Source: a virus. Taken from it: a DNA stretch of 31,500 nt. The notes beneath the pieces are model-generated. The model worked only from the letters and a program-made list of their open reading frames with translations. It was not told where the DNA came from and searched no databases. A program made the position numbers and the translations under genes. Positions 190-31,500 of this stretch are shown here, piece by piece. How positions within the stretch are numbered: position 1 is the stretch's first letter; every line of letters starts with the position of its first letter. The stretch lies in IMG/VR virus record IMGVR_UViG_3300045988_058378; one strand, written 5' to 3'.

Positions 190-218
190 TTGCAATTTGT
201 CGAAATGTCGTGTATGCT
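190..218 (+). promoter_or_regulatory. Sigma-70/SigA-type promoter TTGCAA-17 nt-TATGCT driving a leaderless mRNA
   Basis: -35 TTGCAA at 190-195, a 17-nt spacer, -10 TATGCT at 213-218. The ATG at 226 lies only 7 nt after the -10 and has no Shine-Dalgarno sequence. Confidence 0.6.
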
Positions 219-225
219 ATGAGAT

Positions 226-399
226 ATGACGAAATATTACACAGTGCGACAAGTCGCCGAACACTACGCAGTAACAACGCAAACCGTCCGCAGCCTTATC
301 AAAGACGGTGAAATTCCAGCAATCAAGGTTAAAAGGGACTACCGTATCCCGGTCGAAGCCATAGAGGCTAAAGACCGAGCTGTATTTAAGGCGGCGTAA
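226..399 (+). CDS. Excisionase-family (MerR-like) helix-turn-helix DNA-binding protein, 57 aa
   Basis: Own translation: MTKYYTVRQVAEHYAVTTQTVRSLIKDGEIPAIKVKRDYRIP... This matches the Xis-type HTH pattern (YTxxEaAexLgVsxxTVrrLixxGeiPaxKvGrxyRI). The ORF is below the track length cutoff. Confidence 0.7.
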   Translation: MTKYYTVRQVAEHYAVTTQTVRSLIKDGEIPAIKVKRDYRIPVEAIEAKDRAVFKAA

Positions 400-2463: not shown

Positions 2464-3228
2464 GTCTTGAAATCATTGAAACGAACGTCGCTGACCTCGT
2501 ACCCTATGCGATGAATGCCAAACAGCACCCAGCCGAGCAGGTGGCGTAGATAGCGGCCAGTATCGAAGAGTTCGGCATGAATGACCCAGTGGCCGTGTGG
2601 CATGACGCGGACGGTGTGCCTATCATTGTGGAAGGGCATGGCCGAGTGTTGGCCTTGCAGAAGCTTAAGCGTAAGACGTGTCCAGTTATTTGTCTGGATG
2701 ATTTGTCTGACGCTCAACGTCGCGCCTATACGCTTGTCCATAATCAGCTGACACTTAATTCCGGGTTCGATATAGATATGCTTAACAGCGAATTAGCCCA
2801 GATTAAAACCGATTTACCCTCGCTTGATATGGGCCAATTCGATTTACGGATTAACGATGATACGCAGGATAACGTTTATACTGCGTAAAATCGATACGCC
2901 GGTGTATACACCACAATCCGATACCCCACCCGCTCTCTCCGCGCTATATGACCATTCTAAGACCGATGAACTTTTAACGTATATTAAAGCTAACATTAAA
3001 GATACTAAGTTGCGAAAATTCTTAACGCACGCGGCTTACCGGTTCACAGTCTTTAACTACGACCAAATAGCTGAATATTATTCACACCTACCACAAAACG
3101 AACGGAAGATTTTCGAAAAACTAACCCTCGTTATCGTCAATTACGATAATGCTATTGAAAATGGGTTTATTAAAATGACCAAGACTCTACAAGCGTTAGC
3201 AGAGGAAGCGTTAACCAATGAGGAATAG
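2460..3228 (+). pseudogene. ParB/Srx-like nuclease-domain protein with C-terminal extension; the reading frame is interrupted twice
   Basis: AAGGAG RBS and ATG at 2460. The translation MSLEIIETNVADLVPYAMNAKQHPAEQVA*IAASIEEFGMNDPVAVW...IIVEGHGRVLA follows the ParB N-terminal domain pattern. The in-frame TAG is at 2547-2549. At the TAA (2886-2888) the sequence continues in the +1 frame as KIDTPVYTPQ... through 3228. Confidence 0.6.
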
Positions 3229-4072
3229 TGCTGTTTTTATTCTCACTCGTAAACGTCCGTTTAATCAAAAAACATTTAAGACACTTAAACGACAACACTA
3301 TACCGGTAAAACGTATTTTCTTTTAGACGATACTGACCCAACAATATCCGACTATATTCATGAATACGGCGAACAAAACGTTAAAATATTCAACCGTGAA
3401 AAGGTAGCCGAATATACCGATAGTATGGACAATTTCACTCCGCGTACCGGCATCCTCTACCCTCGTCAATATTCCTACGAATTAGCGCGTGATTTAGGAA
3501 TTGATTATTTTCTTCAGCTCGATGACGATTATACGAGTTTTCAATATCGTTACCCGTCCAGCGGAAAACTTAAAGGGAGAGAATATTCCGACTTTGACAG
3601 AGTCTTTGAGACTTATTACGAAGCGTTGGATGATATACCGCTTTTAACCTGTGTTGCTTTCGCTCAAGGTGGTGACCTTGTGGGTGGGCAGATTAGGAAT
3701 CCGTTTAAACGTAAGGGGATGAACGGTATTTTCTGCAAGACAGATAGAATATAAGAGTTTAAGGGTACTATCAACGAAGACGTTAACGGTTACACGACGA
3801 ACCAGCAAACCGGCGCATTATGTATGACTTATTTAAATTCCATGCTTGTTCAAACGCAAACGCAGTCAGCTAGCGGCGGGATGACGGATATTTACGTTGA
3901 TAGTGGTACGTATGTCAAAAGTTTTTACAGTGTTATTGCTAATCCTGCGGCGGTTAAGGTTAGCGTATTATGTGATTATAGTGCCGATATTCCACGACCC
4001 CGGTTCCACCATAATTGTGTTCAAAATCATTACGCACCGAAGATTATACCTTCGGCGTGTTTGCCTGTCTGA
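3218..4072 (+). pseudogene. GT-A-like glycosyltransferase candidate (DxD motif LQLDDDY) split by an in-frame TAA
   Basis: Track ORFs 3218..3754 and 3824..4072 are in the same frame. They are separated only by the TAA at 3752-3754, and the codons between them are open. The second part has no RBS. Function is inferred from the N-terminal beta-strand plus DxD pattern only. Confidence 0.45.
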
Positions 4073-8607: not shown

Positions 8608-10368
8608 ATGCAACAGACACTCACATGCGACGCGAACAATGTCAGCAGTGACGGCCACACGTTGACGTTCCTTGCCAACTCCGGTACGCGCATGACCAAT
8701 GGCTACACGGTAGACCTTGCAACACTGCAAGCCCCCGTGAACGACGGCCACCTCAAGCTCGTAGCCGACCTGACCGACTCTGACCGACTGACCTTGCCGC
8801 TACTGCTCGACCATATGCCGAGTATCACGGCTCAAGTCGGCATCATCGAGAAACTTTGGTTTGATGATGACGGATTAATGGCTCAGGCTCGACTAAGCGA
8901 CAATGAGCAAGGCCAGAACGTACAACAGTTGGCAAGTGAAGGAATGCTAACCAACTCTTTCAGTATCACAATCGACTTCGATTCTGACCCCGACGAAAAC
9001 GGTGTAATCCATAACGCCGAACTCGTTGAGATTAGCGTGGTCTACCGTGGTGCCGATAGCAAGGCGGTTTTCCGTAGTCTAAACGATATCGAAGGAAAAA
9101 TAATGGAACTTAAGAACAATCTCACCAAGGATGAAGCACAAACCTTGATTGACCAAATCACGGACGCTATCAATGGACTGACCGAAAAGAACGGTGACAA
9201 CACCGAACCGGAAGAACCGGTACAGTCCAACGAGGCAGAAAACAGTAAGGATGGTGACACCGTGGCTAATGGTCGAACCAACATCATCATCAACAGTGCG
9301 GGCGGTGCTCGTCAGTCTCTCGCCAAGGCCAGTGACCCGCTGAAGGACTGGCTGAAGAGTGAGGACGCTACCAAGGCGTACGAGCAAGCATTGTGGCGTA
9401 CCGATAATCAGGGCATGGAGGGCTTTAAGAATGCTTGGCGTGAGGAACTGGCACGTCACGCCTATTCCGACAACTCTTCCATCGATGAAGCTAGTGTTGG
9501 CAAGCTTGTCCCGACTTCGGTTATTACCGAGATTGAAGACGTACTCAACAAGGCTTCTGAGCTGTGGCCGCTGTATCGCAAGCTCGACGTTGACAGCTTC
9601 ACCGTTGGCGCTCAGCTGGCAGGCTTGACCGATGACACTCGCGCCCACGGCTACAAGGTGGCAGACTATGGCACCTCGAAGAAGACGCAGAAGTTTAATC
9701 TTGTGGAACGTAAGCTTGCCGCCGATTTCGTGGTTAAGTATGCAGTGCTTAACAAGGGTGATATTCGTCGTACCGATAAGCCGGGCGCACTCGTGAAGTA
9801 CCTGCTAGCTGAAATGCCGAACTATATTCTGCACGCTATCGACCGTCAGATTATTCTTGGCGGCTATACTGACCTTGATTTCTTCCGCTCCGTGCAGACC
9901 GATGCTAAGGACACTTCCAGCGAGTTCGCGGGCAAGAATTTCGTTCTGAGTGCGGCCGAGGGTACTCGTGCTAATCTCGTGCTCGATGTGGTTGGCCTTG
10001 CATCCAAGATTACGGCAACCGGCACTAAGGTGCTTGTGCTCAGCCCTGATACCAAGGTGGATATTATCACTGCGGCCGATGGTATTGGCCGTCCGCTCGT
10101 CGGCTACGGCAATGATAACCTCGCCGCCTACTTGGGCGTGGATAAGGTTATCACGCCTGATTGGTGGACTGATACCGATGACGCTAAGACTCGCGCAGTG
10201 ATTATTGTGCCGGAAGCTTTCGGTGTGGTTGGTGATACGTCTATCGGTGCTTTCACCAATTTCGCTCTGAAGACTAACGAGCAGGAATATCTGTCGGAGA
10301 TTTTCGCGGGTGGTGCTCTGATGAAGGTTAAGAGTGCTGGCGTGCTGACTCCGAAGGCCGGGGAGTGA
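8608..10368 (+). CDS. Prohead protease (HK97 gp4/S78-like) - acidic linker - HK97-fold major capsid protein, as a single fusion ORF
   Basis: The N-terminal 160 aa carry LLLDH...NSFSITIDF...AELVEISVVYRGADSKA (protease His and Ser contexts). An acidic coiled segment follows, then a ~290-aa capsid-like C-terminus. Confidence 0.75.
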   Translation: MQQTLTCDANNVSSDGHTLTFLANSGTRMTNGYTVDLATLQAPVNDGHLKLVADLTDSDRLTLPLLLDHMPSITAQVGIIEKLWFDDDGLMAQARLSDNEQGQNVQQLASEGMLTNSFSITIDFDSDPDENGVIHNAELVEISVVYRGADSKAVFRSLNDIEGKIMELKNNLTKDEAQTLIDQITDAINGLTEKNGDNTEPEEPVQSNEAENSKDGDTVANGRTNIIINSAGGARQSLAKASDPLKDWLKSEDATKAYEQALWRTDNQGMEGFKNAWREELARHAYSDNSSIDEASVGKLVPTSVITEIEDVLNKASELWPLYRKLDVDSFTVGAQLAGLTDDTRAHGYKVADYGTSKKTQKFNLVERKLAADFVVKYAVLNKGDIRRTDKPGALVKYLLAEMPNYILHAIDRQIILGGYTDLDFFRSVQTDAKDTSSEFAGKNFVLSAAEGTRANLVLDVVGLASKITATGTKVLVLSPDTKVDIITAADGIGRPLVGYGNDNLAAYLGVDKVITPDWWTDTDDAKTRAVIIVPEAFGVVGDTSIGAFTNFALKTNEQEYLSEIFAGGALMKVKSAGVLTPKAGE

Positions 10369-12052: not shown

Positions 12053-12489
12053 TTGAACTGGCAGTAGCATTAGACCTAGCAGAACACGGCTTCGGCACCT
12101 ATGGGGAAACCATCTTCGTAAACGAAAGCCCCATATTAGACACTGGCGCAGTCAGCAGTAAAGACGGCATATGGATAACCTCAACCACAGTAAGCAACGG
12201 CAACGGGCATTACACTGACCAACTCACCATAAGCACCCGCTTCTACGATGTAATCCGACAAGGCGAATACCTCCTAAAACTCATGGAATACATCAACACA
12301 CAGTTGGTAGACCAATGCACGCTAAGCTGTCAACCCGAAAGCCCAATAGTGTACGAGAAGTTAAACATAAGCCCAGCAAGCAGTATAGACCTAGACGCGG
12401 TAGACAATGAAGGCCACTACGTGAAAAGCATCCACTTCACCATTACCTACCCACTCCCAGACTTAAGCGGGGTAAAAGTGATAAACTAG
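12049..12489 (+). CDS. Putative tail terminator or tail completion protein
   Basis: 146 aa, positioned just before the major tail protein. The N-terminus (LAEHGFGTYGETIFVNESP) resembles this class. Confidence 0.5.
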   Translation: MIELAVALDLAEHGFGTYGETIFVNESPILDTGAVSSKDGIWITSTTVSNGNGHYTDQLTISTRFYDVIRQGEYLLKLMEYINTQLVDQCTLSCQPESPIVYEKLNISPASSIDLDAVDNEGHYVKSIHFTITYPLPDLSGVKVIN

Positions 12490-13835: not shown

Positions 13836-16235
13836 ATGGCGCAAGCGGGTGAGATTCGTTTCGATGCTGTTATTGACACTAGCGGCTACGAAAAAGGTGT
13901 GAAGGACATCCAGGACGCTACCGACGAGATTAAAGAATCAGCGGAGCAGGCGGACAAGGCCACCGAAGATGTTGGCAAGAACGGTGGTAAGAACGCGCCA
14001 AGTATTAAGGACGCGTTTAGTAAAACGTTCGACGGGATTAGTGACCTTGCGGACGGGTTAGGCTTGAGTCTGCCTAGCAAGCTTGTGAAAGTCGCGAGTA
14101 TTGGTGGCGCTCTTGCCGCTGTGGGTGGCGTGTTCAAAACCGGTATTGACTCGGCGCTTAGTCAGATTGATGTGCAAGGCACTTTGGACGCCCAACTGGG
14201 TAAGGGTAGTGTGGCCGCTCAAAACGCTGGCAAGGTGGCGGGCGAACTCTACCGGCAAGGCTGGGGTGAGAGTTTGGAAGACGTGGCTAATGTCGCGTCT
14301 AATGTCAGTCAGGTGATTCGTGGTATCGGTGATGGTGATTTAAACACTGTCACGAAGGCTACGGAAGTGTGGGCTCAAACGTTTGACGCGGACGCGGGTG
14401 AGAGCGTACGTGGTGTGAAAGTCCTTATGGAAAAATTCGGTTTGAGCGCTCAGGATGCTACCGACCTTATGACCAAGGGTATGCAGAATGGTCTGAACTA
14501 TACGGACGAACTCGCTGATAATCTTAGCGAGTATGGTGGCCGGTGGGCTGAAGCCGGTACGTCCGCGCAAGAATATTTCTCACTGCTTCAGGCTGGCGTG
14601 GATAGTGGCGCCTACCAACTGGACAAGGTGGGAGACTTCCTTAATGAGTTCCTTACCTCTCTGACGGACGGGCGTATCGAGCAGAGTATTGGAGAGTTTT
14701 CGAAGGGGACTCAGGACGTTTTCAACAATTTCAAGAGTGGTAAGGCCACTGCGGAAGACGTGTTGAATGCTGTTATCGGTGAAATGGGCACCATGACCGA
14801 TAAAACCAAGGAAGCTAGTCTAGCGTCAACTTTATGGTCTAGTCTTGGTGAGGATAATGCGCTTGGTATGATTGAAGCTCTCGGCAACGTGCCGAACAGT
14901 TATGAAAATATCAAGGGTGCTACAGATGAAGCCGCAGACAGCACAATGAGCATCGGTCAACAGTGGGAAGCGTTCAAACGTACCATGAGTGGCACACTGG
15001 GTGACGCGTTCACACCATTTGTTAAGGGCTTCTTAGACGGTTTGACTGATATGACGAAGAAGTTTACCGACTTCGTTAATAACACTGATTGGAGTGGGTT
15101 AGCCAATATTCTGGGTAGTGTTGGTAGTGTTGTCGGCAAGGCGTTCGAAGCAGTCGGCAATTCAATCCAGCCAGCGCTTGACCTCCTGAAAGCATTTTCC
15201 GATTGGTTTAGTGCGAATAGTACGTGGATTGTTTCGGCACTTGTTGGTATCGGCGCCGGTTTTGCCGTGTTCAAGACAGCGCAAATCATTAGTACCGTGG
15301 TCGGTTTTCTTCAGTCGTTCAGTCTTGCGGAGACTGCCGCCACAGTAGTGCAATGGTTGTTTAACGCGGCTATGGCGGCTAATCCGATGGTGTTGGTTAT
15401 CACGCTATTGGCGGCGCTTGTGGCTGGGTTGGTTTACTTTTTCACGCAGACTGACGCGGGTAAGCAAGCATGGCAGGACTTCTGTCAGACCATGCAAGAC
15501 TTGTGGCAAAACCTTTGCGACTTCTTCCAAAACATTTGGGATAGTATCACCAAGTTTTTCACCGACGCCGGAACAAATATTACGAACGCGTGGAATGCTG
15601 TCACTGATTGGTTTAGTGGTATCCCCGACAGAATTAAGGGTTTCTTCAATAATATTGGCGCATGGTTCGGTAGTAAGTTCCAAGAAGTCAAGGATGCGAT
15701 TGTGAACAGATTCAATGAGGCTGTGGAGTTCATCACGGGTATTCCCGGCAGAGTCAGGGATTGTTTCAATGGCGCGGTGAATTGGCTTAAGGATGCTGGC
15801 GGTAATATCGTTCGCGGCTTGTGGAATGGTATCAGTGACATGTTTAATTGGGTGCGTAATAAGATTCTTGGCTTCGGTAAGAATATCGTCAAGTGGGCTA
15901 AGCAAGCGTTGGGTATTCATTCCCCGTCGCGAGTCATGGCCGAAGAGGTTGGCAAGTATATTCCGTCCGGTATCGAAATGGGTATCAAGGCTAACACTAG
16001 TGGTTTGATGGACTCGTTGGACTCGTTGAGTTTGGATATGGTTGACGCTGTAAAGGTGCCGACTACTACTACTGGCTCACTGCCGGTGTTTGATAGTTCT
16101 GCTAGTGGTGTCACGTCCGCGATGCCGCAGACTAGTATTGTTATTCAGAGTATGCAGGTGCGTTCGGATAATGATATTCGTCTGATTGCGCAAGAGTTGA
16201 ATCGTTTGCAACGTCGTGACTTGAAGAGGGTGTGA
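13836..16235 (+). CDS. Tape measure protein
   Basis: 799 aa, Ala/Gly-rich, with hydrophobic central helices, after the chaperones. Confidence 0.85.
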   Translation: MAQAGEIRFDAVIDTSGYEKGVKDIQDATDEIKESAEQADKATEDVGKNGGKNAPSIKDAFSKTFDGISDLADGLGLSLPSKLVKVASIGGALAAVGGVFKTGIDSALSQIDVQGTLDAQLGKGSVAAQNAGKVAGELYRQGWGESLEDVANVASNVSQVIRGIGDGDLNTVTKATEVWAQTFDADAGESVRGVKVLMEKFGLSAQDATDLMTKGMQNGLNYTDELADNLSEYGGRWAEAGTSAQEYFSLLQAGVDSGAYQLDKVGDFLNEFLTSLTDGRIEQSIGEFSKGTQDVFNNFKSGKATAEDVLNAVIGEMGTMTDKTKEASLASTLWSSLGEDNALGMIEALGNVPNSYENIKGATDEAADSTMSIGQQWEAFKRTMSGTLGDAFTPFVKGFLDGLTDMTKKFTDFVNNTDWSGLANILGSVGSVVGKAFEAVGNSIQPALDLLKAFSDWFSANSTWIVSALVGIGAGFAVFKTAQIISTVVGFLQSFSLAETAATVVQWLFNAAMAANPMVLVITLLAALVAGLVYFFTQTDAGKQAWQDFCQTMQDLWQNLCDFFQNIWDSITKFFTDAGTNITNAWNAVTDWFSGIPDRIKGFFNNIGAWFGSKFQEVKDAIVNRFNEAVEFITGIPGRVRDCFNGAVNWLKDAGGNIVRGLWNGISDMFNWVRNKILGFGKNIVKWAKQALGIHSPSRVMAEEVGKYIPSGIEMGIKANTSGLMDSLDSLSLDMVDAVKVPTTTTGSLPVFDSSASGVTSAMPQTSIVIQSMQVRSDNDIRLIAQELNRLQRRDLKRV

Positions 16236-21495: not shown

Positions 21496-21795
21496 ATGAA
21501 CATTACTCAGGCTGAGACTATCGCGGTTGCTATCGTCGGTTTGGTTGCTCCCGTATTCGTGCAGGTTGTTAAACCTATTCTGCCGGATAACATGACCGCC
21601 TTGTTTAGTCTCGCGGTCAGTATTGTGTTGGGCATGTTGGCTATCGCGGCGGTGGGCGGTTTTAATCACGGTTATACGTGGGGTGTACTGCTTGTTGCTG
21701 TGGTGGGTGTCTCTCAGACGGTTTACACTGCTGTCAATCAGGTGATGGGCGGCAAACTTGGTAAAACGTTCGTTGACGAAAATAAGTTGCCCTAG
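21496..21795 (+). CDS. Holin candidate (three predicted TM helices)
   Basis: 99 aa with hydrophobic segments AIVGLVAPVFVQVV, LFSLAVSIVLGMLAIAAVGG and WGVLLVAVVGV. Adjacent to the endolysin. Confidence 0.6.
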   Translation: MNITQAETIAVAIVGLVAPVFVQVVKPILPDNMTALFSLAVSIVLGMLAIAAVGGFNHGYTWGVLLVAVVGVSQTVYTAVNQVMGGKLGKTFVDENKLP

Positions 21796-21801
21796 TATAA
21801 T
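21773..21801 (+). promoter_or_regulatory. Near-consensus promoter TTGACG-17 nt-TATAAT at the 3' end of the holin gene
   Basis: -35 at 21773-21778, -10 at 21796-21801. Only about 90 nt remain before the terminator at 21851-21896. Confidence 0.5.
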
Positions 21802-22599: not shown

Positions 22600-22624
22600 G
22601 TTTTATTCCTTTCGTTAGTTGTGT

Positions 22625-22642
22625 CCCGCCCTTGCGGACGGG
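22625..22642 (-). promoter_or_regulatory. Intercistronic GC-rich hairpin H1 (minus sense CCCGUCC-GCAA-GGGCGGG)
   Basis: 7-bp stem with a GNRA loop. The U-G wobble is valid only in minus-sense RNA. It sits between the stop at 22651 and the ATG at 22599. Confidence 0.6.
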
Positions 22643-22650
22643 GCTGTTGT

Positions 22651-22899
22651 TTAAAGATATTTTATTTCTGCCTCGTAGACTGCGCACTGGTCTAATCCTT
22701 GATGCCATGTGAAATCGTCTACAAGACAGACTCGGCCGAACGTGAAATTTTCGTCGCGCTTGAGGATGTTGCGCATGTTTGCCAATTGGTTTTTAAATTC
22801 CACTGCTTCGCTGTGGAAATCGTAGACTTCTCCGGTTTCTTTTATTACGAGACGTTGTGTGCAGATGCGATAGCTGAGGTAGATGATTGCGGTGGCCAT
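22651..22899 (-). CDS. Hypothetical protein, 82 aa (first ORF of module 1)
   Basis: Track ORF. The ATG is preceded by the cassette SD GAAAGGA. Confidence 0.65.
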   Translation of the reverse strand: MATAIIYLSYRICTQRLVIKETGEVYDFHSEAVEFKNQLANMRNILKRDENFTFGRVCLVDDFTWHQGLDQCAVYEAEIKYL

Positions 22900-22966
22900 T
22901 TTGGTTTGTCCTTTCTTATCGGTTGGTAATTACATAATACATCATTGTTGAGTACGACACGCCGAA
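22900..22966 (-). promoter_or_regulatory. Class-II promoter/5'UTR cassette C1
   Basis: Minus sense: TTCGGCGTGTCG-N15-TATTAT-GTAATTACC-...-GAAAGGA-N9-ATG. Near-identical to C4 and C5. Confidence 0.6.
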
Positions 22967-23715: not shown

Positions 23716-23972
23716 TGCTGGTTCCTTTCGATTGGCGCCCCGCCCTTGCGGGCGGGGCGGGGGGGGCATTCTCCGATGATTTCCGCAAACTTGTCGGTGA
23801 GCCACTTGAGGTATTCTTTTCTGGTGTTAAACTTGCCTTGTGCATGTTCGGTACCGTTCCACCATGCTCCCGTGGTGTTCTCGTTCCACTATGTTTCGAC
23901 GTTTACCGTGCCGTCTTCGTTGGTGGTGGCCTTGATGTTGTATCCCTTGAAGCAGTTGGTTTCGGTGTTCAT
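23712..23972 (-). CDS. Hypothetical protein (first ORF of module 2) carrying an in-frame TAG
   Basis: Own translation from the cassette ATG at 23972: MNTETNCFKGYNIKATTNEDGTVNVET*WNENTTGAWWNGTEHAQGKFNTRKEYLKWLTDKFAEIIGE... The TAG is at 23889-23891. The frame stays open for 58 more codons and ends in a TGA overlapping the next ATG. Confidence 0.45.
23737..23758 (-). promoter_or_regulatory. GC-rich hairpin H2 (GCCCCGCCC-GCAA-GGGCGGGGC)
   Basis: Perfect 9-bp stem with a GNRA loop, about 20 nt upstream of the ATG at 23715. Confidence 0.6.
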
Positions 23973-24035
23973 TTTGTTTGTCCTTTCTTTGTTTGGTAAT
24001 TACATAATACACTACTTGTGTACACGACACGCCGA
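23973..24035 (-). promoter_or_regulatory. Class-II promoter/5'UTR cassette C2
   Basis: Minus sense: TTCGGCGTGTCG-N15-TATTAT-GTAATTACC-AAACAAAGAAAGGACAAACAAA-ATG. Confidence 0.6.
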
Positions 24036-24078
24036 AAAATAAAAAAAGGGAATCTACAAAATTTCTTCGTAGATTCCC
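24035..24078 (-). terminator. Canonical rho-independent terminator (minus strand)
   Basis: 10-bp stem GGGAATCTAC/GTAGATTCCC followed on the minus strand by TTTTTTTATTTTT. It lies just after the stop at 24086. Confidence 0.8.
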
Positions 24079-24085
24079 TGAATTT

Positions 24086-25246: not shown

Positions 25247-25654
25247 TTAGTTTTCCTTTCTTACCGGTAATCCGTTTTCCGTTGTTGCGAGCATGTATGA
25301 TTTCAGTAGTGTGTCCGCTATTTTTTGCCGTCGTGCGGGCGGGATGCGTCTGAGGTTGGTTTCCCAGTGCGCGACTTGGCATTGGCGTACACCGTACATT
25401 TTTGCTATTTCACGTTGGCTGATGCCGAACGCGTTGCGCAAATATTTCAACAATTCGCTATCATCCAAAGAGTCAAGATAAGTATTTCGACTGTTGACGG
25501 TGCGGAGATTGTTTTCGTGGTCGAGCGTGAATAGATTGCCGTTTTTTGACTGGATAAGGTAGGCGTAAACGTCTTCCTTAATTCGGTATTCTCGCTCTCC
25601 GGCGACGGTTTTGAATGTGATGGGCATGGCTTCCGGCCATAGTGTGAGTCTCAT
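25247..25654 (-). CDS. DNA-binding protein with C-terminal XRE-type HTH
   Basis: LRNAFGISQREIAKMYGVRQCQVAHWETNLRRIP is a classic HTH_3 pattern. GAGAGAGGA RBS. Confidence 0.6.
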   Translation of the reverse strand: MRLTLWPEAMPITFKTVAGEREYRIKEDVYAYLIQSKNGNLFTLDHENNLRTVNSRNTYLDSLDDSELLKYLRNAFGISQREIAKMYGVRQCQVAHWETNLRRIPPARRQKIADTLLKSYMLATTENGLPVRKEN

Positions 25655-25933: not shown

Positions 25934-25955
25934 TATTGTTCCTTTGGTTAGGGGT

Positions 25956-25977
25956 GCCCCGCCCTTGCGGGCGGGGC
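25956..25977 (-). promoter_or_regulatory. GC-rich hairpin H3 (GCCCCGCCC-GCAA-GGGCGGGGC)
   Basis: Perfect 9-bp stem with a GNRA loop, between the stop at 25989 and the ATG at 25933. Confidence 0.6.
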
Positions 25978-25988
25978 TGTGGTTTGGT

Positions 25989-26183
25989 TTAGAGTGCGTG
26001 TTCCTTGAGCAGTTCGGTGAATTCGTCGGGGTCTACCTGCTCATAATCGGTGTAGCCGTTCATGTCGCAGATGTCGCGGAGGTCTTTCGCGGCTCCGTAG
26101 GTATTCCAATCGCCGTCATCCTGCCCGCTGTTTTGAAGGTAGTTGACGATGTAGGTTTCTGCTGTGCTGAGGTTGATTTCCAT
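25989..26183 (-). CDS. Highly acidic hypothetical protein, 64 aa (first ORF of module 3)
   Basis: 15 Asp/Glu versus 3 Lys/Arg by direct count. The ATG is preceded by the cassette SD. Confidence 0.6.
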   Translation of the reverse strand: MEINLSTAETYIVNYLQNSGQDDGDWNTYGAAKDLRDICDMNGYTDYEQVDPDEFTELLKEHAL

Positions 26184-26246
26184 TTTGTTTGTCCTTTCTT
26201 TGTTTGGTAATTACATAATACAACAGTTTTGGTTACGACACGCCGG
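26184..26246 (-). promoter_or_regulatory. Class-II promoter/5'UTR cassette C3
   Basis: Minus sense: CCGGCGTGTCG-N15-TATTAT-GTAATTACC-AAACAAAGAAAGGACAAACAAA-ATG. Confidence 0.6.
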
Positions 26247-27005: not shown

Positions 27006-27028
27006 TATTGTTTCCTTTAATTAATGGT

Positions 27029-27050
27029 GCCCCACCCGCGTGGGCGGGGC
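27029..27050 (-). promoter_or_regulatory. GC-rich hairpin H4 (GCCCCGCCC-ACGC-GGGUGGGGC)
   Basis: 9-bp stem whose G-U pair exists only in minus-sense RNA. It lies between the stop at 27061 and the ATG at 27005. Confidence 0.6.
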
Positions 27051-27060
27051 TGGATGTCGT

Positions 27061-27360
27061 TTATAATGCGTTTTCGGGGAGGGTGTCGAGGTAGTCTATC
27101 GCATCGTACATTCCTTCGGTGGTGTATGGGAAAAGCTTCTCATAGCAGTGACTAGAATAGTGTTGGCCGCGCTTGCGGTAATCCCTGCGAAGTTCTTCGT
27201 CGGTCTTGGCGACTTCCCAGTGAACGCGAATTACTCGATGTATGTTTCCCTTGCGGGTAGTGTACACGTCAAGATTTTTAGTGATGTAGAGCTTCTTCTT
27301 GGGGCCCATCATGTTATCGAAGATTTCGAAGAGGTTGAAGCGGAGGTTTTCGGTGGTCAT
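27061..27360 (-). CDS. Hypothetical protein, 99 aa (first ORF of module 4)
   Basis: Track ORF. The ATG is preceded by the cassette SD. Confidence 0.65.
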   Translation of the reverse strand: MTTENLRFNLFEIFDNMMGPKKKLYITKNLDVYTTRKGNIHRVIRVHWEVAKTDEELRRDYRKRGQHYSSHCYEKLFPYTTEGMYDAIDYLDTLPENAL

Positions 27361-27424
27361 TTTGGTTTGTCCTTTCTTGGTTGGTAATTACATAATACAT
27401 CATTGTTGAGTGCGACACGCCGAA
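27361..27424 (-). promoter_or_regulatory. Class-II promoter/5'UTR cassette C4
   Basis: Minus sense: TTCGGCGTGTCG-N15-TATTAT-GTAATTACC-AACCAAGAAAGGACAAACCAAA-ATG. Confidence 0.6.
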
Positions 27425-27843
27425 CTAGGCAGAATCTCACCCAAACGACTCAACCCACGCGCGCTATCAAGCCCACGGAACCGTTTAGCGGACTGTGCGG
27501 CTTCATCGAGACTACGCCCGCTCAACCTATTCCGCCGATACTCCCAACTCGCCTCACCCTCAATACCCAGTGCGCGCATTTCACGCGTAATGTCGGCTTC
27601 GGAAGGCTTATGGTCACGTTTCCACTTGGCCCAAAAGCTGTTAACGTCGGCGGGCATGAGATACGGCCGCTTCTTCGCATATTCCGGGCTTGCGAAAAAT
27701 TGGCGTATGGCTTCTTTCGCCACGTCCAATCGCATGTCAGTGGCTAACGCTTCCATCCATGCGGCCACCTGCATATCGGTCACAAGACGGTTATCAAAGG
27801 CGCTGGCATAAGTTAGTAGTGCTTGCACTTGCAGTTTATTCAT
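27400..27843 (-). CDS. Hypothetical protein, 147 aa
   Basis: AAGGAA RBS. The ATG at 27843 overlaps the upstream gene by 8 nt. The C-terminal SACRTQQ is encoded by cassette C4. Confidence 0.6.
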   Translation of the reverse strand: MNKLQVQALLTYASAFDNRLVTDMQVAAWMEALATDMRLDVAKEAIRQFFASPEYAKKRPYLMPADVNSFWAKWKRDHKPSEADITREMRALGIEGEASWEYRRNRLSGRSLDEAAQSAKRFRGLDSARGLSRLGEILPSSACRTQQ

Positions 27844-28252
27844 TTCTCGATTCCTTGAATTCAAGTTGCATTAATTTCACGACTTTCAACATGCCGTCCA
27901 AGTCACTTTTTCTAAGGTACAGCCAGAAGAGACCTTCCGTATAGGTGGTGGCTTGGCGGGCAAGGTCTAGCATGGTATCCATGTAGAGACAGCACTTCCC
28001 CACTTGCTTGAGATTGTGTGCGTCCAAGGGTTCGCCATCAATTTCCATGTGGCATTTCTCCCCATTGTCGATAGCCTTCCGCAGATACCATTCCGCTTTC
28101 TGCAAGTCCTCCAATGGGCGCCCCTTAAGCCGGTACCGCCACACGTATTTTATGGCGTTGCCTACGCAAAAACTGTGATATTGCGCGACTTCAATGCATT
28201 CGCAAGGTTTCGTATCGTCAGTGTAGTGTGCTGGATGATTGATATTGCCCAT
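27836..28252 (-). CDS. DUF3310-family protein
   Basis: INHPAHYT...CECIEVAQ...GNAIKYVWRYRLKGRPLEDLQKAEWYL matches my recollection of the DUF3310 signature. Confidence 0.6.
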   Translation of the reverse strand: MGNINHPAHYTDDTKPCECIEVAQYHSFCVGNAIKYVWRYRLKGRPLEDLQKAEWYLRKAIDNGEKCHMEIDGEPLDAHNLKQVGKCCLYMDTMLDLARQATTYTEGLFWLYLRKSDLDGMLKVVKLMQLEFKESRNE

Positions 28253-28671: not shown

Positions 28672-28694
28672 TATGAGTTCCCTTCCAATTGGGT

Positions 28695-28716
28695 GCCCCA
28701 CCCTTGCGGGTGGAGC
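28695..28716 (-). promoter_or_regulatory. GC-rich hairpin H5 (GCUCCACCC-GCAA-GGGUGGGGC)
   Basis: 9-bp stem with a U-G pair valid only in minus-sense RNA, and a GNRA loop. It lies between the stop at 28726 and the ATG at 28671. Confidence 0.6.
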
Positions 28717-28725
28717 AGGTGTTTT

Positions 28726-28986
28726 TCATGCTTTGCGTTCGTAAACGTCTACGTCATAGCCACCTTCAGTGGTGTAGTCTGGCTTGAATTTGCCGAGCCG
28801 GTAGCCTCGTTTGAGCATTTCAAGTCGGAGGGTGAATAGGATGCCTCCCACACGGTTCAGGTTTTCAATGTCGAAGTTGATTCCGTTATCGATGTTGCGG
28901 ACGTGTGCGGTTGCGTTTTCTTCGTCGATGATGACGTATGCGTCACAGATGTATTCGCCTTGGTTGTACGGCTGGAGTTTAACCAT
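28726..28986 (-). CDS. Hypothetical protein, 86 aa (first ORF of module 5)
   Basis: Cassette ATG at 28986 (MVKLQPYNQG...). The longer track ORF would run through the promoter and terminator. Confidence 0.6.
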   Translation of the reverse strand: MVKLQPYNQGEYICDAYVIIDEENATAHVRNIDNGINFDIENLNRVGGILFTLRLEMLKRGYRLGKFKPDYTTEGGYDVDVYERKA

Positions 28987-29050
28987 TTTAGATTCCTTTC
29001 TTATCGGTTGGTAATTACATAATACATCATTGTTGAGTACGACACGCCGG
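28987..29050 (-). promoter_or_regulatory. Class-II promoter/5'UTR cassette C5
   Basis: Minus sense: CCGGCGTGTCG-N15-TATTAT-GTAATTACC-AACCGATAAGAAAGGAATCTAAA-ATG. Confidence 0.6.
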
Positions 29051-29088
29051 AAAACAGAAAATGCCCGCCGAAACAAATCAGCGGGCAT
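29051..29088 (-). terminator. Rho-independent terminator (minus strand) after the paralog triplet
   Basis: ATGCCCGC/GCGGGCAT stem followed on the minus strand by TTTCTGTTTT. Confidence 0.7.
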
Positions 29089-29102: not shown

Positions 29103-29522
29103 TCAATAGGCGAACTTGACCGGCACTAGCGGGAGCGCCCCAGCACCAAACGTCGAGATAACAAGAGGCCATGTAACATGTAACGCGGATGATCCATCGC
29201 TCCAAACACGGTTTAGCGGCTCAGTCCCATACTTTCCGTCATCAAGAGTAGGACGGCGCACACTCCAATCACCTGCTCCGTCACTGTAGAGCAGTGTGCC
29301 GGTCTGGGTGATGTAATAGCCCTCCTCTGTTGGCATTTCCTGCATTGTCCTCATATTTTCTGGGAAACGATAATTGAGTGCGTCTTGCAATGCTTTCATC
29401 TCGTTTTCATCCCGGAACCTTAGCACGACATTCCACCCGTCTTCCGTCGTAGTGGCGGCCAAGTCTCGCAATGAGTTGATAACAATAGATTCCGGATTTG
29501 TATACGCTGTGACCTTAATCAT
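29103..29522 (-). CDS. Paralog family member C, 139 aa, unknown function
   Basis: Shares L-x-x-L-N-x-x-FPEN, EEGYY-x-TQTG-LL, DWSVR and a C-terminal PL-x-V motif with the two upstream genes. Confidence 0.7.
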   Translation of the reverse strand: MIKVTAYTNPESIVINSLRDLAATTTEDGWNVVLRFRDENEMKALQDALNYRFPENMRTMQEMPTEEGYYITQTGTLLYSDGAGDWSVRRPTLDDGKYGTEPLNRVWSDGSSALHVTWPLVISTFGAGALPLVPVKFAY

Positions 29523-29532
29523 TTTTGTCCTT

Positions 29533-29982
29533 TCACTGATAAATTGGGGTGACGCTCACACGAGTCAGCGGGAACGCCTTGGCGCCAAGCTTCTTAATTA
29601 CCTTGAGCCAATCGGTCTCGTAATCGTCGTTTTCTCCCAGCCAATTACAATGCGCTGGGCTGGTATATGGGTCTCCCTCGTCGTATGCTCTGATACTCCA
29701 ATCGCCTTCCGTATCCTTGCATAGAAGTAGTCCGGTGGAGGTAAGGTATAGGCCTTCTTCTTCGGGCTCCTTGAATTTCTTGTCAAGTTTGATATTTTCC
29801 GGGAAAATATTGTTTAATCCGTCTTGGAGTGCCTGTAAATCTTCCGTGGAGTAAAACCCAATGTCCAAACACCTTGTATGGTCTTGGTTGAGTCGTTCGT
29901 CTATGGATGCCGATTTAACGCCATCGATACGTAGGCTGTTGATGCCATTCTCGTAAGCGTAACGGGATACTGTGATAATCAT
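29533..29982 (-). CDS. Paralog family member B, 149 aa, unknown function
   Basis: AAAGGA RBS before the ATG at 29982. Motifs LNNIFPEN, EEGLYLTSTGLLL, DWSIR and FPLTRV. Confidence 0.7.
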   Translation of the reverse strand: MIITVSRYAYENGINSLRIDGVKSASIDERLNQDHTRCLDIGFYSTEDLQALQDGLNNIFPENIKLDKKFKEPEEEGLYLTSTGLLLCKDTEGDWSIRAYDEGDPYTSPAHCNWLGENDDYETDWLKVIKKLGAKAFPLTRVSVTPIYQ

Positions 29983-29993
29983 TTTTTGTCCTT

Positions 29994-30410
29994 TCATTCT
30001 GAAAATGGGGTAATGTTTACACGAGTTAGTGGCAGTGCGACTTTAGTTAATTTTTCGATGACATTTTGCCATTTCTCGTTGATTAAATGTAAGTGTGTTG
30101 GGTCCCATGCCAAGTATGGTGTAGTTGAGTCTTTGAATCGTATGACGCTCCACCCCCATTCATCTTTTAAGAGCAGTATTCCAGTTTGCGAGAGGTAATA
30201 CCCTTCTTCTTTTGGTTCTCTGAATTTTTCGTCTACGGTGACGTTTTCGGGGAAAAGATTATTTAACTCGTTTTGGAATTCTTTCAAATCGTCCAAGTTG
30301 CTGAATTGCAGTCGCACGGTGTTCGTGGGATTGCATTTGCCTCGTTTTACTCCGTGAATGGTCAGTGTTTCGCAGTCTGCGAATGATTGGTGGCTTACTT
30401 TTATTGACAT
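29994..30410 (-). CDS. Paralog family member A, 138 aa, unknown function
   Basis: AAAGGGG RBS. Motifs LNNLFPEN, EEGYYLSQTGILLL, WSVIR and LPLTRV. Confidence 0.7.
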   Translation of the reverse strand: MSIKVSHQSFADCETLTIHGVKRGKCNPTNTVRLQFSNLDDLKEFQNELNNLFPENVTVDEKFREPKEEGYYLSQTGILLLKDEWGWSVIRFKDSTTPYLAWDPTHLHLINEKWQNVIEKLTKVALPLTRVNITPFSE

Positions 30411-30477
30411 TTCATGCCCCTTTCATTGGTTGGCCTCACATTATCGATTATATATGATTACGGACGCGACACGCCGG
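30411..30477 (-). promoter_or_regulatory. Divergent class-II promoter cassette C6
   Basis: Minus sense: CCGGCGTGTCG-N14-TATAAT-CGAT... then AAAGGGG-N6-ATG. The box overlaps the last codons of the replication gene (SGVSRP*). Confidence 0.5.
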
Positions 30478-31228
30478 ACTCAATCTGAAAGCCGAAGAGG
30501 TCAGTTTGCGACTGCATCGCTTGGGCTAGATTCTGCATATTCCGTTCCGCGTTCGTGGCGGGCTTGCGTGCTCGCGGAGGGTCTGGACGGTATTCGTCGT
30601 TCCATCTTTCCCCGTTGAGCCATGTGGCGAAATTTGGAATAAATCTGGTTTCCGTGTTGGCGCACTGCGCGGCGAATGCTTGCACCTTGGCCATGAGGAA
30701 GGCACTGTTCATACCTACTTTTGCTTTACGCCATGCCTTGTAAGCTGCCATCTTGGCTACATGCTTCGGGTAGATTGTCCACAGTTGTTCGAACGCTGTC
30801 GGGTATTCTTCGCGCTTGTGTGGTGCTGGTTCCGTCGGTGCGGGTTCGCGTGTGGGTTCTACCGTGGTAGTCGATTCTGGAGCTTGGTAAAGCGTTTTAT
30901 CAAGCGTATCAGGCTTAGAGGAATCAGACTGGACATTACGTTCTTCGGTGGTCACATGGTAGACGGTTGATTTACGCACGCCATTTGCCGCATATCTTGG
31001 CTCACGAGTAATAAGCCCTTTGGCCTCTAGCGATTTCAGCGCGGTATAGACGCTACGTTCTCCGCACATTGCTTCGGCGGCTATCGTGGCCACTGACGGG
31101 AAGCACTGCCCGTTATCGTCAGTGTGGTCTACTAGAACGATGTAGACGAGTTTTTCCAAAGTGTTGTCAAAGTGCTTTCCTCTGATGACCCAGTGGCGCA
31201 TAGCACAAAAACCTTGAATATCTTGCAT
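30458..31228 (-). CDS. Replication initiator or replisome organiser with winged-helix HTH N-terminal domain
   Basis: LVYIVLVDHTDDNGQCFPSVATIAAEAMCGERSVYTALKSLEAKGLITRE is a wHTH pattern. The C-terminus FEQLWTIYPKHVAKMAAYKAWRKA is a motif common in phage replication proteins. The gene is adjacent to the iterons. The start is set at the leaderless ATG at 31228, because the longer track ORF translates the repeats. Confidence 0.6.
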   Translation of the reverse strand: MQDIQGFCAMRHWVIRGKHFDNTLEKLVYIVLVDHTDDNGQCFPSVATIAAEAMCGERSVYTALKSLEAKGLITREPRYAANGVRKSTVYHVTTEERNVQSDSSKPDTLDKTLYQAPESTTTVEPTREPAPTEPAPHKREEYPTAFEQLWTIYPKHVAKMAAYKAWRKAKVGMNSAFLMAKVQAFAAQCANTETRFIPNFATWLNGERWNDEYRPDPPRARKPATNAERNMQNLAQAMQSQTDLFGFQIESGVSRP

Positions 31229-31235
31229 AGATAAT

Positions 31236-31264
31236 ACTATAACACAAGATTGACGACGTTGCAA
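31236..31264 (-). promoter_or_regulatory. Sigma-70/SigA-type promoter TTGCAA-17 nt-TATAGT driving a leaderless rep mRNA
   Basis: Minus sense: -35 at 31264-31259 and -10 at 31241-31236. The ATG at 31228 is 7 nt downstream, with no SD. Confidence 0.6.
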
Positions 31265-31292
31265 AATTTTTTCTTTTAGTATTTTCTTTTTC

Positions 31293-31339
31293 TTACTATG
31301 GTTATACTTCCATTGGTTATTTTTACTATGGTTATACTT
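31293..31339. repeat. AT-rich region with two 17-bp direct repeats TTACTATGGTTATACTT (candidate DNA unwinding or accessory binding element)
   Basis: Copies at 31293-31309 and 31323-31339, with a third TGGTTAT between them. They lie between the rep promoter and the iteron array. Confidence 0.6.
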
Positions 31340-31343
31340 ATCC

Positions 31344-31500
31344 CTGCATGTGGTGCAGGGTAGTACTGCATGTGGTGCAGGGTAGTACTGCATGTGGTGC
31401 AGGGTAGTACTGCATGTGGTGCAGGGTAGTACTGCATGTGGTGCAGGGTAGTACTGCATGTGGTGCAGGGTAGTACTGCATGTGGTGCAGGGTAGTACTG
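31344..31500. repeat. Second view of the 22-bp iteron array (7.1 copies), identical to 1-157
   Basis: Units start at 31344, 31366, 31388, 31410, 31432, 31454 and 31476. Confidence 0.95.

Follow-up and report, generated by a model that had tools for sequence, protein, structure and literature searches.

How are the early genes of a phage transcribed from promoters that combine a good -10 element with nothing resembling a -35? The question is raised by a stretch of viral DNA of 31,500 nucleotides (nt), IMG/VR record IMGVR_UViG_3300045988_058378 (the whole of which is referred to here as the window), which has the look of a whole phage genome (about 31.5 kb). The + strand carries the head, tail and lysis genes as far as about 21.8 kb, and about 25 small early-type genes are read leftwards on the - strand, between 31.2 and 21.9 kb. 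Six promoter-like cassettes (C1 to C6) precede genes on this strand, and in each of them a 10-mer, CGGCGTGTCG (the box), lies upstream of the -10. The box is probably a site for WhiA, a regulator of cell division and development that is conserved in Gram-positive bacteria; supplied by the presumed actinobacterial host, this protein may take the place of the missing -35.

The first-pass annotation described five minus-strand cassettes reading YCGGCGTGTCG-N15-TATTAT-GTAATTACC, and all five were recovered exactly. The pattern CGGCGTGTCG-N15-TATWAT has five exact matches in the window, all on the - strand (22934-22964, 24004-24034, 26215-26245, 27392-27422 and 29019-29049); the chance expectation is a mean of 0.04 matches per shuffle, and none of 100 shuffles reached five. 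Alignment of the five shows a conserved unit consisting of the box, 15 nt, TATTAT-GTAATTACC, an A/C-rich leader of about 30 nt with a strong Shine-Dalgarno (SD) sequence at its end (AGAAAGGA), and an ATG. The exact 10-mer is present in six copies, all on the - strand and none outside the cassettes. The spacer differs in sequence between subfamilies but is constant in length, as had been noted: TACTCAACAATGATG in C1 and C5, CACTCAACAATGATG in C4, TGTACACAAGTAGTG in C2 and TAACCAAAACTGTTG in C3. The sixth cassette, C6 (CCGGCGTGTCG-CGTCCGTAATCATA-TATAAT-CGAT), has the box, the TATAAT and the ATCGAT palindrome attributed to it, but its spacer is of 14 nt rather than 15.

Direct reading bears out the earlier remark that GCGTGT, as a candidate -35 hexamer, matches TTGACA at a single base of six; CGTGTC and GGCGTG match it at none. 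A canonical -35 (TTGACA-like, or TTGNNN in Bifidobacterium) is absent from the cassettes at 16-18 nt upstream of the -10, and a consensus scan misses them. A -10 of the sigma-A type (TAnnnT) is present throughout, as TATTAT in five cassettes and TATAAT in C6. Alternative readings of the -10 (ATTATG, TAATTA or TATGTA) and a -35 hidden in the spacer were rejected, there being no TTG at a usable distance. With TATTAT placed at -12 to -7, the box lies at about -37 to -28, and GTGTC (GACAC on the template strand) at -33 to -29. The features of the cassettes are as follows (RBS, ribosome-binding site; ORF, open reading frame; aa, amino acids; 5'UTR, 5' untranslated region).

22955..22964, - strand: C1 box CGGCGTGTCG, at about -37 to -28; reverse complement CGACACGCCG
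22934..22939, - strand: C1 -10 element TATTAT, 15 nt downstream of the box
22897..22933, - strand: C1 start-site region and leader, with GTAATTAC at 22926-22933, an A/C-rich 5'UTR, the RBS AGAAAGGA and the ATG (22897-22899) of an 82-aa gene
24025..24034, - strand: C2 box CGGCGTGTCG
23970..24009, - strand: C2 from -10 to ATG, with TATTAT at 24004-24009, GTAATTAC at 23996-24003, leader, RBS and ATG at 23970-23972
24047..24079, - strand: hairpin resembling an intrinsic terminator, with T-run, directly upstream of the C2 box
26236..26245, - strand: C3 box CGGCGTGTCG
26181..26220, - strand: C3 from -10 to ATG, with TATTAT at 26215-26220, GTAATTAC at 26207-26214, leader, RBS and ATG at 26181-26183; 64-aa acidic protein
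27413..27422, - strand: C4 box CGGCGTGTCG, overlapping the 3' end of ORF 27400-27864
27358..27397, - strand: C4 from -10 to ATG, with TATTAT at 27392-27397, GTAATTAC at 27384-27391, leader, RBS and ATG at 27358-27360; 99-aa gene
29040..29049, - strand: C5 box CGGCGTGTCG
28984..29024, - strand: C5 from -10 to ATG, with TATTAT at 29019-29024, GTAATTAC at 29011-29018, leader, RBS and ATG at 28984-28986
29061..29088, - strand: hairpin resembling an intrinsic terminator (ATGCCCGC...GCGGGCAT), with T-run, directly upstream of the C5 box
30467..30476, - strand: C6 box CGGCGTGTCG, within the 3' end of the rep ORF
30408..30452, - strand: C6 from -10 to ATG, with TATAAT at 30447-30452, ATCGAT at 30443-30448, a different leader and ATG at 30408-30410; first of three paralogues

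Close relatives of this phage carry the same cassettes. IMG/VR has about 40 of them, as contigs close to 30 kb in length that carry between one and five cassettes apiece, and a profile-based collection from such contigs yielded 109 distinct cassette sequences. The box is intact in 103 of them and TATTAT in 107, and they contain 45 different spacer sequences, every one of 15 nt. The persistence of an intact box, spacer length and TATTAT across 45 spacers implies selection on the box, on its distance to the -10 and on the -10 itself, but not on the spacer sequence. The box is very probably a recognition site for a protein. Four of the six types of box variant (TGGCGTGTCG, CGGTGTGTCG, CGGCGTGTCT and CGGCGTGTCA) keep the core GAYACRCY, and the majority of variants are changed at flanking positions or at the R of this core. 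The cassettes also mark mosaic junctions, at which one upstream context is followed by different first genes according to the relative (L047, L059, L016 and L003, as against C1 and C4 of the window); the pattern points to an exchange of modules through recombination inside the conserved promoter-leader.

The box also occurs in phages with little else in common with the window; the cross-lineage protein comparisons cover parts of each contig. A siphophage lineage (L043, L068 and L157) has in common with the window only TerL (47%), SSB, ERF and DUF3310, its replication and regulatory genes being different. Four boxes occupy orthologous promoter sites in two isolates of this lineage, and three of the four lie 14-15 nt from TATTAT, TATTGT, TACACT or TATAGT. 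The DNA polymerase of the phi29-like podophages L005, L030 and L050 is 92.5% identical to its counterpart in Bifidobacterium phage BP1; with the B. dentium phages BD811P1-3 the identity is 76%. BP1 is an isolated phage of B. pseudocatenulatum, the early end of which consists of a terminator, CGGCGTGTCG-N15-TATAAT, an RBS and an ATG; its terminal repeats bear a perfect box, followed by a degenerate GGGCGTGTTG 15 nt before TATAGT. The same arrangement of box and -10 is found in divergent podophage contigs (L203, L206 and L062; 50-64% G+C) and in a further siphophage lineage (L193 and L186). In the parts compared, these podophage and L193/L186 loci have no protein in common with the window except an endolysin domain or terminase, and no protein family of regulatory appearance was found to be shared by the box-bearing lineages. 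The spacing is 15 nt, rarely 14 or 16, over several lineages. In an orientation control on IMG/VR, the forward box pattern was found in 67 stretches, as against three matches when the box was reverse-complemented and its distance to TATWATG kept unchanged; a scan of spacings from N9 to N21 before TATAAT peaked at N15, with 15 unique sequences against a background of about four among the matches listed.

Where the box co-occurs with a canonical -35 it stands upstream of it, as at the Streptomyces promoter sepX. The bee-gut B. asteroides phages BlindBasel1 and BlindUri1, the nearest to the window by protein (TerL 52% identical, same general architecture), are without an exact box or cassettes and have one core-containing site each, upstream of a canonical promoter (box, 17 nt, TTGACA-17-TACTAT), and in contig L064 a box lies 2 nt upstream of TTGACA. 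L064 (IMGVR_UViG_3300032309_001318; 84.5 kb, 35% G+C) is an unrelated, low-G+C phage contig with, at about 225-370, three tandem copies of GGCGTGTCG between inverted repeats and two further copies 2 nt upstream of TTGACA and TTGATA. Another lineage (L178, L214 and L250) has an inverted motif pair, GACACGCTA-CGGCGTGTC, 14 nt upstream of TGTGTATAAT. In the early region of BlindUri1 (L002), the intergenic repeat TGTTA-N9-TAACA (9826-9844, 12120-12138 and 15266-15284) may be the equivalent regulatory element of the bee Bifidobacterium phages.

The host of the phage in the window is taken to belong to the Bifidobacteriaceae, and is probably a Bifidobacterium. The nearest isolates, by the TerL of the window and by the DNA polymerase of the box-bearing podophages, infect this genus, and the RBS AGAAAGGA is complementary to the 3' end of Bifidobacterium 16S rRNA. 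Primary-sigma promoters of Bifidobacterium have the consensus TTGNNN / TANNNT, with the -35 contributing less than the -10; the box is therefore not the ordinary -35 of the host. WhiA has been found in all actinobacteria surveyed except Acidimicrobium, including Bifidobacterium and Gardnerella (PMC4255298).

The reverse complement of the box, CGACACGCCG, matches the WhiA consensus of Mycobacterium tuberculosis at ten positions of ten. The top motif for WhiA in an earlier M. tuberculosis atlas made by chromatin immunoprecipitation sequencing (ChIP-seq) is CGACACGCCGn, and an 8-bp motif, GACACGCC, has been obtained by ChIP-seq and by in vitro IDAP-seq (PMC13473873). Streptomyces WhiA binds GACAC (PMC3781837), the sequence cGACACGc upstream of the -10 of mycobacterial mcdR is required for activation by WhiB2 (PMC9040748), and GAYACRCY is found upstream of rpsJ over WhiA-bearing bacteria, in a G+C-rich form in G+C-rich genomes (PMC11701221). 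The phage sequence CGACACGCCG contains GACACGCC, GACAC, cGACACGc and this cross-phylum core, and is exact in all six copies in the window and in the family cassettes with an intact box (103/109). The match was reached after about a dozen known motifs had been tried, the chance of a 10/10 match in either orientation being about 2e-6 per motif tried. None of the motifs considered for LexA, DnaA, CRP/GlxR, extracytoplasmic function (ECF) sigma factors or Spo0A fits the box, and a search of the literature for the box as a text string returned primers only. We consider it fairly probable, on this correspondence, that WhiA binds the box; for the Bifidobacterium protein, binding is presumed from the match to its mycobacterial counterpart.

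How WhiA might act at this position is suggested by work on cellular promoters. In Actinobacteria its partner is an Fe-S protein, WhiB, which binds region 4 of sigma-A. The helix-turn-helix (HTH) domain at the C terminus of WhiA is similar to sigma region 4 and touches GACA in the way that region 4 touches TTGACA, and WhiB bridges WhiA to region 4 of sigma-A (PMC10243135). WhiA and WhiB2 jointly activate transcription in vitro. The reading that we favour, with roughly even confidence, is that the cassettes are sigma-A promoters with a host WhiA site in place of the -35, at which WhiA, probably with WhiB, activates early transcription. The host RNA polymerase with its primary sigma factor would read the good -10 (TATTAT or TATAAT), and WhiA on the box, probably together with WhiB, would supply the upstream contact normally given by a -35. 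The start site would lie within GTAATTAC, transcription being expected to begin at its A, and would be followed by an unstructured A/C-rich 5'UTR and the strong RBS, with no operator. The leftward early operons would need only host proteins in order to fire, and would vary in output with WhiA/WhiB activity, that is, with the growth and division state of the cell. Activation, as the inferred direction of the effect, is favoured because spacing and orientation stay fixed from one unrelated spacer or lineage to the next, as is usual for an element that must face RNA polymerase; because no TTG is retained at the -35 position; because the podophage copies drive early genes at the genome end, which must fire with host proteins; and because the motif is required for WhiB2-dependent activation in mycobacteria.

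Several points weigh against this reading. In the one activation complex that has been solved, that of sepX, a normal -35 is present, the WhiA motif stands upstream of it and WhiB lies in between (PMC10243135); no such arrangement is seen in the cassettes, where the motif covers about -36 to -29 and no TTGNNN stands 16-18 nt from the -10. Here the motif coincides with the -35 position, the place of sigma region 4, and ordinary rules suggest repression; for WhiA, repression is about as frequent as activation. The Bifidobacterium -35 being weaker than the -10, the cassettes might be active with no upstream factor at all. When 185,579 species genomes were scanned for the full pattern, there were 59 scattered single matches, with no prophage and no enriched taxon, and a host regulon with the exact box-spacing architecture was not seen; the single match in Gardnerella, in a chromosomal AT-rich intergenic region, could be due to chance. 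The preference for N15 is weak outside the family, at about nine independent lineages against a background of about four to five among the matches listed. The host genus is itself deduced from relatives, and the presence of WhiA in this host comes from a literature survey.

The first-pass annotation had proposed instead a two-tier cascade, in which canonical promoters act first and a phage-encoded factor then gates the cassettes, the palindrome next to the -10 serving as an operator over the start site. The existence of two promoter classes is upheld. The second is bipartite, a good -10 being preceded at constant distance by a conserved box that is not of the sigma-70 type, and the canonical promoters that flank the origin (class I) or lie at 21773 are present as described:

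190..228, + strand: class I promoter TTGCAA-17-TATGCT (hexamers 190-218), with the ATG of the 57-aa HTH_17 gene 7 nt past the -10 (ATG included in the range)
31236..31264, - strand: class I promoter TTGCAA-17-TATAGT, upstream of rep
21773..21801, + strand: TTGACG-17-TATAAT, an 11/12 match and the best sigma-70-type match of the early region

In every lineage a canonical promoter of the TTGCAA type precedes the small HTH_17 gene (window 190-228; L009, L032, L048, L060, L043 and L157), and the ATG of this gene, 6-7 nt past the -10, implies a leaderless mRNA, the box promoters having instead long SD-bearing leaders. Leaderless mRNAs are common in Actinobacteria, and an actinobacterial host is plausible from this feature also. 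The promoter at 21773-21801 lies at the end of the holin gene and is directed to the right, antisense to the leftward early genes; the first hairpin terminator on the + strand after it is at about 22628, and an antisense transcript may result. That hairpin region falls within a second repeat family, CCCCGCCC-TTGC-GGGCGGGG (22620-22649, 23734-23763, 25953-25982, 27026-27055 and 28692-28721), members of which lie just 3' of the first small gene after each of C1 to C5 and just before the next RBS. These G+C-rich hairpins have a T-rich tail on the + strand and so look like terminators of antisense (+ strand) transcription; they could also be 3'-end or processing structures of the sense strand.

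The remainder of the proposed cascade fares less well. The palindrome GTAATTAC is present in about 89 of the 109 distinct cassettes and is replaced in about a fifth, by GTAATTAT (11 cassettes), AAAACTAT (six), GTAATCAT and others, the three named variants breaking its symmetry with no compensating change; it is thus under loose constraint only, and more distant box-bearing lineages have unrelated sequence at this position. An operator over the +1 is, on this evidence, unlikely, and the simplest reading of GTAATTAC is an AT-rich discriminator or start region inherited by descent. Candidate regulators were sought with Pfam and PHROGs scans of about 45 ORFs of the window, a set that does not include every small ORF. 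The scans identified Rep (HTH_36), ERF, a YqaJ-type exonuclease, DUF3310, HNH, SSB, RusA, a ParB-like protein, a TET-associated glycosyltransferase and single HTH_3 and HTH_17 proteins, the latter of 57 aa. No sigma factor, RNA polymerase, MotA/AsiA-like protein, integrase or CI was revealed, the Pfam search for sigma factors and polymerases covering roughly 30 ORFs, and neither WhiB-like phage proteins (Cys pattern with GxWGG) nor a phage ORF resembling the C-terminal domain of WhiA were found. The HTH_17 protein (226-399) was rejected as the box binder: it has a positional orthologue in every lineage, including the cassette-less Blind phages, and its recognition helix is strongly divergent among phages with an identical box. 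Of the other proteins named as candidates, neither the basic protein (400-723) nor the HTH_3 protein (25247-25654) nor Rep has a homologue in the contig parts compared from the remaining box-bearing lineages. There is, then, no conserved candidate regulator across these lineages, which makes a phage-encoded box binder unlikely, and gating by a phage factor is at odds with a box that is invariant in lineages without a detectable common regulator and equal to the published consensus of WhiA, a presumed host factor. Both promoter classes could fire with host proteins alone.

Of the alternatives to activation by WhiA, the strongest is that WhiA on the -35 position silences the early promoters in a certain host state, so that infection is deferred or silenced much as by Spo0A in phi29, and that the -10, with actinobacterial RbpA/CarD, drives them when WhiA is off. 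By direct reading the box overlaps the site of sigma region 4, WhiA represses many targets, for which promoter occlusion has been invoked by the authors concerned, and the -35 of Bifidobacterium is weakly conserved, with smaller mutational effects; a plasmid-like replicon (Rep with 14 iterons) and a ParB-like gene, with no integrase or CI among the scanned ORFs, make a carrier state conceivable. Repressor sites, however, tolerate variable placement, whereas the spacing here holds at 15 nt, with rare exceptions, over 45 spacers and several lineages. A perfect consensus is also carried by every early promoter, including those at the genome ends of virulent podophages, which must fire first, and no -35-like TTG is kept beneath or beside the box. 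We regard repression as rather doubtful on this balance. An explanation in which the canonical origin promoters express a phage protein, an activator or a remodeller of sigma, that reads the box, with the palindrome as operator, has a precedent in the MotA-box promoters of T4 and is consistent with the two promoter classes and with a canonical rightward operon that starts with a small HTH protein, in which a weak Sigma70_r4 match (E=0.005) lies beneath the strong HTH_17 match. The variable HTH_17 helix, the homologues of this protein in BlindBasel1 and BlindUri1, which lack the cassettes, the absence of the other candidates from the compared parts of the other box-bearing lineages, the lack of any WhiA-like, WhiB-like, sigma or polymerase ORF among those scanned and the inconstant palindrome make this explanation improbable.

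It is more improbable still that a host sigma factor, either an alternative one or the primary one with an unusual -35 specificity, reads the box directly and without WhiA. The fixed distance to the -10 is what would be seen with a true -35, and the C-terminal domain of WhiA and sigma region 4 recognise an overlapping sequence, GACA; in the cassettes, however, region 4 of a polymerase that transcribes towards TATTAT would need GACA on the opposite strand, the primary sigma factor of Bifidobacterium has the TTGNNN / TANNNT consensus, and the same phages use TTGCAA-17-TAnnnT for class I. A TATAAT-like -10 is, moreover, atypical of ECF sigma factors. That the box has no role in transcription and is kept as a repeat for the recombination of modules, or through gene conversion, is hardly credible: the cassettes do lie at mosaic junctions, with the same upstream context and different downstream genes, but the spacer would then be conserved like the box, and it is not, and the box recurs with the same spacing in non-homologous promoters of unrelated phages. 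Activation by WhiA is thus retained as our preferred reading. An extension of it, which we put forward only tentatively and think less likely to be right than wrong, is that the cassettes represent an undescribed class of actinobacterial promoter in which the region-4-like domain of WhiA, inverted on GACACGCC, is the -35 reader for sigma-A, a class that several unrelated Bifidobacterium phages would have adopted for their early genes without a phage regulator, tying infection to the host cell-division programme.

Some further features of the window concern the phage itself. No GenBank phage gives a megablast match to 25 kb of the window, but its TerL cluster at 99% identity has 1147 member sequences, indicating that the phage is common in public data. 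A 22-bp iteron, CTGCATGTGGTGCAGGGTAGTA, is present in fourteen exact copies, seven at 1-154 and seven at 31344-31497; this division over both ends implies that the record is a circularly permuted assembly broken within the origin. The first 77 or so codons of the listed 333-aa rep ORF (30458-31459) are translated iterons, and the true start is probably near 31228. Following C6, at 29103-30410, three tandem paralogues (138, 154 and 139 aa) have the common pattern ...FPEN...EEGYY.TQTG.LL... and no family match. The ParB-like gene appears split (103 + 134 aa, region 2577-3228) as against 255 aa in L153, the TET-associated glycosyltransferase gene appears split (178 + 82 aa, region 3218-4072) as against 284 aa in relatives, and the first gene downstream of C2 (23889-23972) stops at 27 codons and is intact in relatives; these may be frameshifts, pseudogenes or assembly errors. 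The ParB-like gene (nuclease or methyltransferase-associated) adjoins the glycosyltransferase gene at 2577-4072, a pairing that hints at DNA hypermodification; no TET or C5-methyltransferase was found among the ORFs scanned.

The cassettes can be compared with several known systems. They resemble the cellular WhiA/WhiB (WhiB2) promoters of Streptomyces (sepX, ftsZ, ftsW) and mycobacteria (mcdR, dnaE1, sepF) in combining a motif of the GACAC, GACACGCC or CGACACGCCG type with a primary-sigma -10; in mcdR the motif lies upstream of the -10 and is needed there for activation, and either orientation of the motif occurs among known WhiA targets. They differ from sepX in that the motif replaces the -35, at a strict 15 nt, rather than lying upstream of a normal one, and from all of these promoters in being viral and in numbering five or six per genome. 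The middle promoters of T4 likewise lack a -35 and pair a good -10 with a conserved non-sigma box, which is centred near -30 and keeps a constant distance, but the likeness is one of architecture only: the TGCTT-type box of T4 is read by the phage protein MotA after AsiA has remodelled sigma region 4, whereas the cassette box matches the site of a host factor, and no pair of T4-type activator and anti-sigma co-activator was found in the scans of the window.

Sites for host regulators in phage promoters are known from the Spo0A boxes of phi29 early promoters, the CtrA boxes of alphaproteobacterial phages and the LexA sites of GIL01 and CTXphi; in most of these cases the site represses or defers, and its position varies. 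The cassettes would be like them in using the sites of a host master regulator to tie infection to host physiology, and phi29-like Bifidobacterium phages are among the carriers, but the regulator here would be WhiA, the host is of another phylum, and a perfect consensus stands at a fixed promoter position. Repeats of actinobacteriophages include the stoperators of Cluster A, which bind the phage's own repressor and are cluster-specific, and the start-associated sequences of Cluster K. The box is similar to both in being a short asymmetric motif found in a single orientation in short intergenic regions; unlike stoperators, it is common to unrelated phages and equals the consensus of a host factor.

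A full-text literature search on WhiA, phage and promoter found no phage early genes wired to WhiA or WhiB. Both BP1 and its B. pseudocatenulatum host are in culture, so that the idea is open to direct test. If it is correct, the promoter geometry, with a WhiA site for the -35, would go beyond the single solved activation complex, the cassettes would provide compact, strong and host-state-responsive promoter-leader units for the engineering of Bifidobacterium, and the box would be a sequence signature linking uncultured gut phages to actinobacterial hosts. These phages would also be the first known case that we have found of early genes being wired to WhiA/WhiB, a pair essential for mycobacterial cell division.

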